In this document: positions 20,586 through 60,136 of the stretch, piece by piece
Position numbering within the stretch: position 1 is the stretch's first letter
Layout of the letters: the number at the start of each line of letters is the position of its first letter
Assembly (NCBI GenBank): GCA_964016885.1
Contig: OZ024746.1
Coordinates: forward strand, 21,204,001 to 21,268,000
Length of the DNA: 64,000 bases
From: Eledone cirrhosa
Lineage: Eukaryota
Direction of reading: 5' to 3'
Notes under the pieces: model-generated
What the model saw: only the letters and a program-made list of their open reading frames with translations
The model's database searches: none
Told to the model about the DNA's origin: nothing
Program-made: the position numbers and the translations under genes

Positions 20586-21102
20586 TTCGTTTCTGAATTT
20601 GTTTAGCAAGATTCTTTATCTGAAAACGTGTGTTGAAACCGATATTGTTATACTTTGGGAGGGTCAGGTTGCCAATAAGAAACACACGCACCAGTTGATT
20701 TCACTTCAATTTATTATAAATTAAATTCATAAATTTAGGAATTTATAAATTTCCGGTTGGTTGGTTGGTTCCACAACCAGACGATTGTTCATAAATTGTC
20801 AAAGTTCTTTCGTCACACATTATGTGACTTCTTCAGTGACTGGGGATTCTTTTCTTTTCTTTTCTTTGTTTTTGTGCCTCTCCTTTGTTCTGTCCTACGC
20901 CATCTTGTTTATGTGTGTGTTGTGTGAATCCCCAGTCACTGAAGAGGTCACAGAATGTGAGACGAAAGAACTTGGACAATTTATGAACAATCGTCTGGTT
21001 GTGGAACCAACCAACCAACCGGAAATTTATAATAAATTGAAGTGAAACAACTGGTGCGTGTGTTTCTTATTGGCAACATGACCCTCCCAAAGTATAACAA
21101 TA
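20586..21102. mobile_element. Fold-back element, family B (inverted Penelope-like pLTRs), between (TA)n tracts
   Basis: Inverted arms 20642-20849 and 20926-21102, 76-nt loop, ~55-nt tail 20586-20641 on one arm only; hammerhead motif in each arm. Confidence 0.85.
20798..20840 (-). ncRNA. Minimal type I hammerhead ribozyme; degenerate mirror copy at 20935-20977 (+)
   Basis: GTCA-CTGAAGA-A-GTCACA(TAATG)TGTGAC-GAAA-G(AA)C-TT^-TGAC. Confidence 0.75.
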
Positions 21103-21117
21103 TATATATATATATAT

Positions 21118-21178
21118 AAGTCCAGAAATAACCGTCGAAACGACTTGAGCTCTGCCGTCGGAGTCATACTTTCTCCTA
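21118..21178 (+). mobile_element. Family A fragment (short arm only) inside (TA)n
   Basis: AGTCCAGAAATAACCGTCGAAACGACTTGAGCTCTGCCGTCGGAGTCATACTTTCTCCTA matches 31674-31712 and 59998-60056. Confidence 0.85.
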
Positions 21179-22569
21179 TATATATATATATATATATATA
21201 TATATATATATATATATATATATATATATATATATATATATATATATATATATATATATATATACAATGATATTAAATAAATGGAAACTATATTTATCAA
21301 GCCATATTTATTCTATTATATATATTTCAAGGGTAGCAAAACTTTGGTACGCTCTCATCAGATAAAATACAAAATTTGTTTTATAAATATTGACATAACC
21401 AAGAAAAAATACCTTAACGGTTCAAGTTTTTCTTGGATAAGTTATAAACATTTATATTTGTTGAATTACCAACAACATATATATATATATATATATATAT
21501 ATATATATATATATATATATATATATATATATATATATATATATATATATATATATATATATATATATATATATATATATATATATATATATATATATAT
21601 ATATATATAGCCGATACAGCTTGGCACCAGTGAGGTCGCAATTCATTTCTACAGGTAAGTAAACTGGAGAAATGTGGAATAAAGGTATTTTGCAAAAGGA
21701 GACAACGCATCACCCGGTCTGGGAATAGAACTCACTCCTCACAATTGCAAGCCCAAGAAATGCTTCTCGAAAAAAACATTAAATTTTTATTTTTTGTTTT
21801 TACTAAGAAATGGCTTCGAGATATTCAAATATCCATCCCCATTACTCTTTTGGGGAAATATGTTTTACTGAAGCTTCATATTTAACCGTATATATAAATA
21901 TATATATTTTTATACGTAAATCATTTATATAGTTATTCGGGCGTCAGAAAGAGCGGCACGCCATAATGGTGATAACAATAGATTCCATAACGTAAACAAA
22001 TACTCTCCCCACATTCCGAACATGAAAACAAACTTTATATAAAACAATAATGTTAAAATTAAACAAACAAAAGTAGCTTCAAGCATAATCGCTTGCAGTA
22101 AAGCTAAAAAAGGATTGTGTTGAAAACATTAATTCGAATGGGGGACAAAAACAACTCACTACAGCAACGATCTACCGCTTACATCAACAAAAATCCATCT
22201 GTTGCAAACATTGTGATTCATGAGGTGTTACAGAACATAAACTAGCTCCATAAAAAAAAAAATGTAGACGAAGTATGTCAAGAAATCAGTGTTTTCTTAT
22301 TTGAGAAATTTGTTCAAGAAAGAGTGAAGTAACATGCATCTTTGCTGCGAAAAACAATGTGATTTCGAACATAGAATTGGATGAGAAATTAGCAGACCTG
22401 TTATGGGATGTTTTTCCTCAATCGTCGTAGGGATAAAGAAGTGTCTGGTCATTATGACTGAGGATGAGGAAAGCAGGTAGAACAGATTACCACACGCCTG
22501 CACAGTAGCTGATATGGCAGTTCATGGGAATTTGAACACATGACTACAACCAAAGGTATTATTACTAAA

Positions 22570-23987
22570 GGCGGTGGAGTGGGAGTATTGGTAGAGGGTC
22601 AGACGTCATGCTTTCCAGCATAGTTACGTCCCTTTACGATCTGTGTTCAAATCCGGTCGAGGTTAACTTTGCCTTTCATCCTTACGAGGTTGATAAAATA
22701 AAGTACCAGTAATGCGCTGGAGTAATAGCTGGCCTTGTGCCAAAAGTAGAAACAATTATTACTAAAGTTGGCCCGTGAATTATCGTCACTTATGTGGTGC
22801 AGCGCGGCTACGAGATAAACGTGTTGGTGGCCTGCAACAACATGTGGTTTGCATGAACCATCAGTTCTTGATGATCTCAGTAAAACACAAGGCTAAACAA
22901 AGGACGAAGACTGGAGAAATATGGCAACTCTTTGGAGACAGCAAAAGATAATTGGAAAAAGCGAAATAATTGTTTCTACTTTAGGCACAAGGCCAGCAAT
23001 TACTCAGTACATTACTGGTACTTTATTTTATCGACCCCGTAAGGATGAAAGGCAAAGTTAACCTCGGCGGGATTTGAACTCAGAATGTAAAGGGACGTAA
23101 CTATGCTAGAAAGCATGGCGTCCAACCCTCTACCGATACTGCCAATTCACCCCCTGGAAAAAGAGAAATAATGGTATCTAATTTAGGCACAAGACCATCA
23201 ATTTAAGGTAGCATGCGTCCTCCCTCCGCCATATTCATTGGTTTCCCTTATTTGTTTTTGTCATAGTTTAATATATTGTAAAATGTTTTTGACACACCTC
23301 AGTTTATTAAATATACTTTCCCACATGTTTTGTAACCTACATGTATGACGAGTTTTGTATTGCATGCATGAACCATTGTGGCCAATAAAGAAAGGATTAT
23401 TATTGTTTTTGTTGTCCTTGTAGAAGATATTTCTTTTGTTTGATTTATATACAAAAAATGTTAATTTTTGGTTTCTTTTACTAATCTTCTTCAGAACGTA
23501 AAGTAAAGTAACTTAATATTACAATGTATTTATTTATAAAATAACTATTTAAAAAAAATAATACATACGTTGTAAATAAATAATGGTTTCTGATTTAGGC
23601 ACAAGGCCAACAATTTTTATGGGGGGTGGGGTCGATTAAATCAACCCCAGTGTGTTTCTGGTACTTTATTTTATCGACCCCGTAAGGATGAAAGGCAAAG
23701 TTAACCTCGGCAGGATATAAGCTCAGAACGTAAAGAGCCGTAACTATATGCCGCAATGCATGTTGTCCGATGCTCTACCGATACTGCCATTCTACCGCCA
23801 TGCGTTGTACATAAATAATTGTTTCTACGTTAGGCACAAGGCCAGCAATTACCCAGTGTATTACTGGTACTTTATTTTATCGACCCCGTAAGGATGAAAG
23901 GCAAAGTTAACCTCGGCGGGATTTGAACTCAGAATGGCAAGGGCCGTAACTCTATGCGCCAAAACATGGCATCCGACACTCTACCAA
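22570..23987. mobile_element. Four major-family SINEs: 22570-22760 (+), 22966-23153 (-), 23581-23798 (-), 23815-23987 (-)
   Basis: Consensus matches along their length. Confidence 0.9.
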
Positions 23988-58774: not shown

Positions 58775-59440
58775 ATAAATATATTGGAATAGAATGAAAC
58801 GAAATTTCATTTCTCACTCTTAGTACGGCACTTACTTAAATGTAAGTATGTATGTATGTACACGTACATACATATATGTATACAGACGTACAGTAGTATG
58901 TATATATATACATACATGCACACATATATATATGCACGTATCAGTTTACCGAACATTTATTATAATGCTCGGTTTGTTTGTTTGTAAACAAACAAACAAC
59001 CCGAATTACGCCGTACAGTGTGTAGGAAACCACGTCACCTTTTTGTTCAACACGTTTTCGGTGTGCCCGGCCGACTGAACTCACTCGATATGCGGGTTGG
59101 GCTGCTCAGTCGTTAATATGCATAAGGAAATATATACTTTCAGACGTTCAACCATCTGGCAGGAAGGTATACGATGCTGACGATAGCTAATAAGCTTGAA
59201 ACTAGTACATCGTTCTTGTGTCGGTGTTGAACAAAAAGGTGACGTGGTTGCCTAAACACTGTACGGCGTAATTCGGGCTGTTTGTTTGTTTACAAACAAA
59301 CAAACCGAGCATTATAATAAATGTTCGGTAAACTGATACGTGCATATATATATGTGTATACACGTATGTATATATATAGATACTACTGTACGTCTGTATA
59401 CATATGTATGTACGTGTACATACATATATACTTACATTTA
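58775..59440. mobile_element. Fold-back element, family C: 217-bp inverted arms with a hammerhead in the loop
   Basis: Arms 58837-59053 and 59224-59440; possible ~60-nt tail 58775-58836. Confidence 0.85.
59171..59213 (+). ncRNA. Minimal type I hammerhead ribozyme
   Basis: ACGATG-CTGACGA-T-AGCT(AATA)AGCT-T-GAAAC(TA)GTA^-CATCGT: 6-bp stem I, palindromic ACTAGT. Confidence 0.85.
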
Positions 59441-59444
59441 TATA

Positions 59445-59547
59445 TATAGGGTGTCCCATCAAAATATATACACACTTTGATTACATGTACAGGCAGTATT
59501 TATTAGAATGATGCTGAAGTGTGTATAAATTTTGGGGATTCCCTATA
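59445..59547. mobile_element. ~100 bp Tc1/mariner-type MITE
   Basis: TATAGGGTGTCCCATCAAAATATATACACACTT..AAGTGTGTATAAATTTTGGGGATTCCCTATA. Confidence 0.65.
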
Positions 59548-59936
59548 TATATATATATATATAGTTTAATTTATAATACGTATAGCTGTAGCCATTATCT
59601 ACCCACTTACTGATTTTGCAAGAATCATGTTGTAAATACGAAGTTATAATTCAGACGGACACTTTCGTTAATTAGTGAATATACAGCTTCATGTAGACAT
59701 AATGCATACACCCGGACTGTACAGCTTCTACTTACATTCCATATGCAACAGTTGCATCAGCAATTGTTACTCACAAAAGTCATACAATACTTATAAATAT
59801 CACATAACCGGACTATGCAACGTTAAATCACCAGGAGTTCAGTTCAAATTCAAACAGGAGATTTATACGAGCGATTCCGAGTGACTGGTACAATATATAC
59901 TGGTGTGTATATATATATATATATATATATATATAT

Positions 59937-60136
59937 GAACGAGTAGGACCCCGACGGCTGAGCTCAAGCCGTTTCGACGGCTAATTCTGGACTAAATAGT
60001 CCAGAATTAGCCGTCGAAACGGCTTGAGCTCAGCCGTCAGGGTCCTACTCGTTCCTATTACCCACTCTACTACCCTAAGTATTGGGTACTTTGGTGCGTT
60101 ATGGTCCACCTGGTTCCTTACCACATTTCCTTCGTT
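59937..60136. mobile_element. Fold-back element, family A, copy 4
   Basis: 58-bp arms 59937-59994 and 59997-60054 with AA loop, then ~80-nt tail; (TA)n on both sides. Confidence 0.9.

Follow-up and report, generated by a model that had tools for sequence, protein, structure and literature searches.

Penelope-like retroelements (PLEs) are known to insert together with an inverted, truncated copy of themselves, and the origin of this inverted repeat, and of the tail that goes with it, is still called unresolved (PMC8557442, PMC11167929; these papers and those below are cited for part of their text). Here we examine a group of short inserts in a window of 64,000 nucleotides (nt) from Eledone cirrhosa (assembly GCA_964016885.1, contig OZ024746.1, positions 21,204,001 to 21,268,000), all coordinates below being those of this window, which are likely, judging by sequence, to be the cut-short ends of several PLE families. 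The inverted truncated copy has been described in PMC3846280 and again in PMC8557442, where it is accompanied by a one-sided tail of 30-40 base pairs (bp) and by TA targeting.

Closest to the window inserts are the complex insertions of endonuclease-positive PLEs (Pen2a_Av in PMC3846280; Fig. 2 of PMC8557442), which share the inverted 5'-truncated copy, the head-to-head joint, the tail at one end and the palindrome at the joint; the window copies differ in having no open reading frame, in tails of 55-80 nt against 30-40 bp, and in a target-site duplication that is unreadable within their TA flanks. The Hydra-clade PLEs and the Naiads also have TA repeats as targets, and the former carry canonical hammerhead ribozymes, which the latter lack (PMC8557442). 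The window inserts lie in TA repeat and most of them contain hammerhead cores, unlike Naiads, although this combination is not unique to the Hydra clade and assignment to a clade needs protein, the Hydra clade being marked by an endonuclease without CCHH and by a CxCX5C linker. Schistosoma has paired minimal hammerheads on opposite strands, 100-700 bp apart and including a U3-A8 variant, which have been read as truncated PLEs; unlike here, the geometry of their junctions is not analysed in the part of PMC4209133 cited.

In vitro, the protein of the green anole element Poseidon, which is predicted to form a dimer, cuts and extends both strands of an AT-rich target and starts reverse transcription at two fixed internal sites that bound the tail, with a hammerhead upstream (PMC11167929). 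The window inserts resemble this arrangement but have short TA target homology at both ends, and the inverted arm is left unexplained in the main text of that paper. In L1 twin or dual priming an internal second primer gives an inverted arm, and two complementary DNAs (cDNAs) are joined at their ends with or without microhomology (PMC2837659); in the window inserts it is instead the element that sets the place of the second start, which can also act without the first, and overlap between the arms is common, giving hairpins. Our literature search, for which most subscription papers and supplements were out of reach, turned up no case in which twin priming had been invoked for PLEs; it is named in PMC3649969 in the reference list only, and the part of PMC12602865 cited says nothing about tails.

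Layout of the inserts and their fixed ends

A seed search of the window gave seven fold-backs in TA repeat, each with a one-sided tail and named here by position (20586, 31069, 31553, 31947, 41254, 58837 and 59937). A generic inverted-repeat search was dominated by the TA repeats themselves; local inverted repeats were far more frequent than expected by chance, with 13 bins occupied in the window and no more than 0-2 in any of 10 shuffles; the 13 take in non-family hairpins, and a single hairpin can span two bins. The inserts are real, and they mostly show the known PLE layout, ordinary for the class, in new families with longer tails. Our reading, to which we give a probability of about 0.65, is that the hairpins arose when a TA repeat was cut and each of its two ends primed a cDNA, with one start at the tail end and a second, fixed one lying 55-80 nt deeper in the element. 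There are two fixed outer ends and three types of product, namely tailed copies alone, tail-less copies alone and the two joined head to head, and together with the lone tailed and tail-less copies this arm geometry agrees with a pair of target-primed cDNAs whose ends were joined. The copies of family A are as follows, the linear copy serving as reference (position 1 is 46352 and position 80 is 46431, the internal end):

46352..47062, minus strand: linear, tailed, 5'-truncated copy (tail 46352-46430, internal end 46431)
31068..31220, no single strand: fold-back (the 31069 element), tailed arm at reference 2-101, tail-less arm at 80-138
31553..31712, no single strand: fold-back of a diverged subfamily, tailed arm 1-129, tail-less arm 80 to about 120
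59937..60135, no single strand: near-symmetric fold-back, tailed arm 1-141, tail-less arm 80-144
21119..21178, plus strand: solo tail-less stub, reference 80-140, TA on both sides and no partner arm

The tail-less ends of family A fall in 4/4 cases at the site equivalent to 46431 (59937 differs by one base), which is one among 13 TA steps within the first 144 nt, and the internal ends show 2-5 nt of TA microhomology. The inner ends of the tail-less arms lie at 138, 140, 144 and about 120, so that three of the four copies fall within reference 138-144, and the 5' end of the solo stub is the A of a TTAGT motif. Direct inner joints have 1-6 nt of microhomology (5-6 nt in 31069, 6 nt in 31553). 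The tailed arm of 31069 stops close to where the hammerhead is predicted to cut, the turn of 31553 coincides exactly with a natural hairpin of 6 bp and its arms are identical at 37/39 positions, the arms of 59937 differ by two substitutions, and subfamily-specific letters are common to both arms in all three of these fold-backs. The tail of family A is about 79 nt long.

Family A, with five copies in the 64 kb, was also followed in four of the ten sequencing runs listed, as the only family and with one reference, using 46340-47068 as the target. X1 is a set of contigs, possibly from the assembly's own sample; X6 holds contigs of another organism; X8 and X9 are raw reduced-representation reads from samples and a study separate from X1. 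The linear copy is covered in 29-30 of 30 bins in X1, X8 and X9, and the family accounts for about 25,700 of 12.5-12.8 million reads in the two reduced-representation runs. Loose ends entering TA at 46431 number 3533 reads in X8 (depth 14905 at 46435), 3072 in X9 (depth 15106) and 94 contigs in X1, and the diverged subfamily has the same type of junction (1169 in X8, 1290 in X9, 90 in X1). In X6 there are 235 contigs, mostly over 46365-46489, and none of the six listed loose ends enters TA. For family A the 24 loose-end rows listed, beyond which there are 826 more, show no random scatter of short-arm ends.

Of the 27 joint rows 15 are listed, 12 of these being opposite-strand rows that collapse to 11 junctions, since a 3-nt microhomology makes two of them alternative placements of a single junction. 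One end lies within 46481-46491 in nine of the 11 and the other at or before 46454 in ten, depth in X1 drops about tenfold at 46490, and three junctions stop within the tail (46392, 46397 and 46422-25). The last of these (46422-25/46491-88), a direct joint with the 3-nt microhomology, was found in X1, X8 and X9, thus in two studies, and 46454/46490 recurs in the same three runs. In the rows 46437>46491 and 46437>46485 the shorter sides are 61 and 55 nt, the exact distance to 46431, and with reads of 150 nt the stretch left over is too short for the tailed arm to draw level. Four junctions breaking at 46437, where a diverged subfamily also stops aligning, were excluded as exact stop points, and read ends at 46484 in X8 and X9, which coincide with an AATT site (46481-46484), were handled as a library cut, presumably by the enzyme used. 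In the listed junctions and the arm ends of the window, then, tail-less arms have their inner ends close together, whereas the stop of the tailed arm varies.

The other three families add the following fold-backs:

20586..21102, no single strand: family B, tail 20586-20641, arms 20642-20849 and 20926-21103, T-rich loop
41254..41561, no single strand: family B, distant subfamily, with a 20-nt tail-less arm and the tail at 41508-41561
31947..32134, no single strand: family C, perfect fold-back with arms 59/59 identical, a hammerhead in both arms and the tail at about 32061-32134
58785..59440, no single strand: family D (the 58837 element), arms 58837-59053 and 59224-59440 (208/215 identical), left boundary approximate

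The two tail-less ends of family B (21102 and 41254) fall on a common site, its tails are 55-57 nt long, and the long tailed arm of 41254 is cut inside the hammerhead. The arms of 20586 are identical at 173/178 positions apart from a 29-nt indel; 4/5 of the substitutions cluster in the hammerhead region, and this clustering, taken with the indel, may point to two templates. The tail of 31947 is about 75 nt. That of 58837, single-copy in the window and with an unsure boundary, is about 50-60 nt and may be host DNA carried along; both arms of this element hold about 100 nt of microsatellite-like DNA (58846-58940 and 59340-59435), which suggests read-through into the host flank before copying. 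Arm differences are found in 6/7 fold-backs, with divergence of up to 3%, and the one-sided tail is seen in family A (in reads) and B (in two copies), with one copy each for C and D.

Much of this layout had been set out in an earlier note on this DNA, and each junction that it cited lies where it was placed. Its shared short-arm end is borne out for family B and, at the 46431-equivalent site, for family A, except that the end at 21178 belongs to the solo stub; its tail lengths of 55-80 nt agree with those given above, and both 31947 (listed from 31942) and 58837 are indeed fold-backs with a one-sided tail, subject to the doubt over the 58837 tail. The variable turn stands for the stop of the tailed arm and not for the clustered end at 46481-46491. 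The linear tailed copy at 46352 had been missed, and the arm called short, the tail-less one, often extends further into the element than its tailed partner.

Routes to the joined arms

With priming at both ends, the element's endonuclease would nick both target strands and each target 3' end would pair with RNA through 2-5 nt of TA; the inner cDNA would run for about 60 nt and finish near 46491, at a stall or where the RNA itself begins, the outer one would halt near the inner primer or displace it, and so set the symmetry of the hairpin, and the two cDNA ends would anneal by microhomology and be filled in, the templates being one RNA or two. Nicking, priming, collision and joining are steps that we infer from such products, and the fixed internal end fits the second start site of reverse transcription shown in vitro for a PLE (PMC11167929).

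The earlier note had the tail form first, with a single cDNA then snapping back or switching template at a variable point, before pairing with the target or cleavage by an endonuclease settled the second arm at a fixed TA site. A snap-back copies only what the first cDNA contains, and the tailed arm must therefore reach at least as far into the element as the other. The tail-less arm is the one that goes further in 31069 (138 against 101), in 58837 (by about 170 nt, hammerhead included), by 2-3 nt in 59937 and probably in 20586, where the loop is T-rich and the orientation inferred; in 31553 and 41254 it is the tailed arm, and in 31947 neither. Twin priming predicts an inverted arm that begins at an internal start and can reach past the first cDNA, which is what is found in 31069, in 58837 and in the read junctions whose tailed arm ends in the tail. 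None of these can be given by a snap-back, which also leaves the solo stub at 21119-21178 unexplained, the fixed end occurring there without any fold-back to resolve. The turn of 31553 at a natural hairpin, the perfect arms of 31947, the near-symmetry of 59937 and the subfamily letters common to both arms do speak for it, self-priming at inverted junctions was proposed earlier (PMC3846280), and the tail has been ascribed to endonuclease resolution (PMC8557442). It could be the route for the symmetric subset, and it would seem unlikely as the general one. What survives of the proposal is the pairing with the (TA)n target, in the form of the TA microhomology at internal ends though not in the order of resolution, and a template switch if this means joining to a second cDNA.

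It is also quite unlikely that symmetric hairpins arose first, by either route, and that one arm was then partly lost through microhomology-mediated deletion from the apex. Microhomology is present at the inner joints, deletions of this kind have been described in PLE copies (PMC3846280), and arms up to 3% diverged would have had time enough for them. In the listed junctions, however, deletion would need to spare the end at 46481-46491 yet strike the other arm. Hairpins sequence poorly, and libraries poor in them could bias both junction counts.

Several points weigh against priming at both ends. The near-symmetric copies 31553, 31947 and 59937 fit a snap-back equally well, and one-sided deletion from an older symmetric hairpin yields the same shapes. 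The starts of reverse transcription are not homologous to the cut DNA in the part of PMC11167929 cited, whereas here there is short TA homology. The reference diverges from the subfamilies near 46437 and 46481-46495, so that the clustering near 46490 may partly reflect this divergence together with the AATT cut. Finally, no reverse transcriptase or GIY-YIG endonuclease was found by Pfam in the 30 of 125 listed frames searched, where the only matches, weak ones to ACDC and zf-C2H2, were below the cut-off.

Ribozymes and membership of the class

Scanning for type I hammerheads with a motif of our own gave seven cores, against 0-1 in 10 shuffles. These are in family A (46541-46446), in both arms of 31947, in the loop of 58837, in two solo islands between TA runs and, doubtfully, at 56313:

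46446..46541, minus strand: type I hammerhead motif of family A, cut predicted after 46451

The core in the 58837 loop is a canonical minimal hammerhead (59171-59213, plus strand, the strand of the tail-less arm), and a minimal hammerhead can be made out by eye in both arms of 20586, absent from the scan output. Rfam gave no matches at its gathering score, and the folding energies of six pieces had z-scores that were not significant in 6/6, none going beyond the shuffles; the ribozyme call therefore rests on motif and pairing. It gains further support from a G to A change at 46536, present in about half of the X1 depth, which turns the core into the U3-A8 variant known for PLE hammerheads (PMC4209133). 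The two islands (5892-6043 on the plus strand and 21265-21476 on the minus strand) have a common stem I 5' strand and are likely solo stubs of a fifth family. Within 20586-21476 three hammerhead-related inserts stand in a row with TA runs alone between them, an insertion hot spot.

As no protein-coding partner turned up, membership of the PLEs rests on features of RNA and layout. The type I hammerhead lies near the 3' end, the inverted 5'-truncated copy is joined head to head in seven window elements and 11 listed read junctions, and the tail is at one end only, being longer than the published 30-40 bp. Partial tandems forming pseudo-long terminal repeats (pLTRs) are absent from the window, with one contig row, from 46423 to 46367 with tail-start letters, hinting at such a tandem. 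The link to inverted and tailed Penelope pLTRs that the earlier note had drawn is upheld by the hammerhead cores and the published layout.

Very improbable, in our judgement, is that the inserts are instead miniature inverted-repeat transposable elements (MITEs), other foldback-type DNA elements or non-long terminal repeat retrozymes. They are short, non-coding inverted repeats in TA, and hammerheads mark retrozymes too (10.64898/2026.07.22.740005); those retrozymes are tandem, however, and head-to-tail hammerhead arrays are absent from the window. MITEs and foldback elements would have inverted repeats at both termini, with which a tail on one side only, inner truncation at varying points, solo stubs and a linear copy of 710 nt do not agree. 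That the hairpins are fold-back chimeras of sequencing or assembly is hardly credible: 31947 is perfect and the 15 joint rows listed contain none of the three family A joints from the window, which limits the confirmation of palindromes in raw reads to other junctions of the family, but these recur across separate libraries and the arm differences in 6/7 fold-backs argue against read chimeras.

Inner ends, other repeats and significance

The inner ends of family A cDNAs form one cluster:

46486..46495, minus strand: inner (5') end cluster, centred on TTAGT, whose A is 46491

We infer that 46491 is either the start of the RNA or a stall of the reverse transcriptase. A transcription start there is the weaker proposal, which we set below twin priming; the pattern would be no different if the reverse transcriptase stalled in stem II or if the master copy were truncated. 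About 29-31 nt upstream of 46491 is a TATA-like stretch, variant in 11 contigs; we take this spacing to be that of a TATA box and TTAGT to be initiator-like. PLE promoters within the pLTR have been described both as TATA-less (PMC2377424) and as having a putative TATA and initiator (PMC3846280).

It is conceivable, if doubtful, that the inverted PLE pLTR is programmed twin priming. A TATA/initiator promoter within hammerhead stem II would start the RNA of family A at 46491, leaving out the opening half of the ribozyme core, so that the RNA could not self-cleave; the reverse transcriptase would prime at two fixed sites in the first 140 nt and run to the cap, flooding TA repeats with stubs of 60-200 nt that resemble short interspersed elements (SINEs), and a motif common to the tails of three families may place both starts. 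A 13-nt motif is found in the tails of A (46397-46409) and C (32084-32096), at a similar distance from the internal end, and in a separate island (31745-31757 within 31726-31841). It has six matches against 0.61 expected, four of them family A copies, and was picked from the same data. A motif scan of metagenomes gave one match, in a contig of 70% GC without further similarity, which we regard as chance, and a viral sequence scan gave none.

A splice acceptor at 46491-46490 was considered and rejected, as no skip joint from there is among the joint rows listed. A stop at the hammerhead cut was likewise rejected as a general rule, as it fits 31069 only and 58837 stops 16 nt short.

Other repeats share the window with these inserts. 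A small element at 59447-59545, with TA on either side, ends in imperfect inverted repeats and is MITE-like. A 600-bp repeat occurs in three copies of 95-97% identity beside TA-rich runs (10704-11319, 47183-47798 and 57085-57685), the last containing the weak C2H2 zinc-finger match under the Pfam cut-off (57317-57613, plus strand). An abundant, dispersed repeat with the size of a SINE (about 190 bp) has more than ten copies (22569-23988, 27087-27725, 43409-43598, 56056-56243 and 60997-63343). There is also a 46-bp minisatellite of 63 copies (14441-17265), and a TA-interrupted 41-bp array (39407-41256) adjoins the 41254 element.

What these inserts add to the known PLE layout is a simple geometric test, which favours twin priming at fixed sites and tells against tail-first snap-back as a general route. 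Their products are dense and very short, and they let a single assembly choose between snap-back and twin priming by which arm reaches further.

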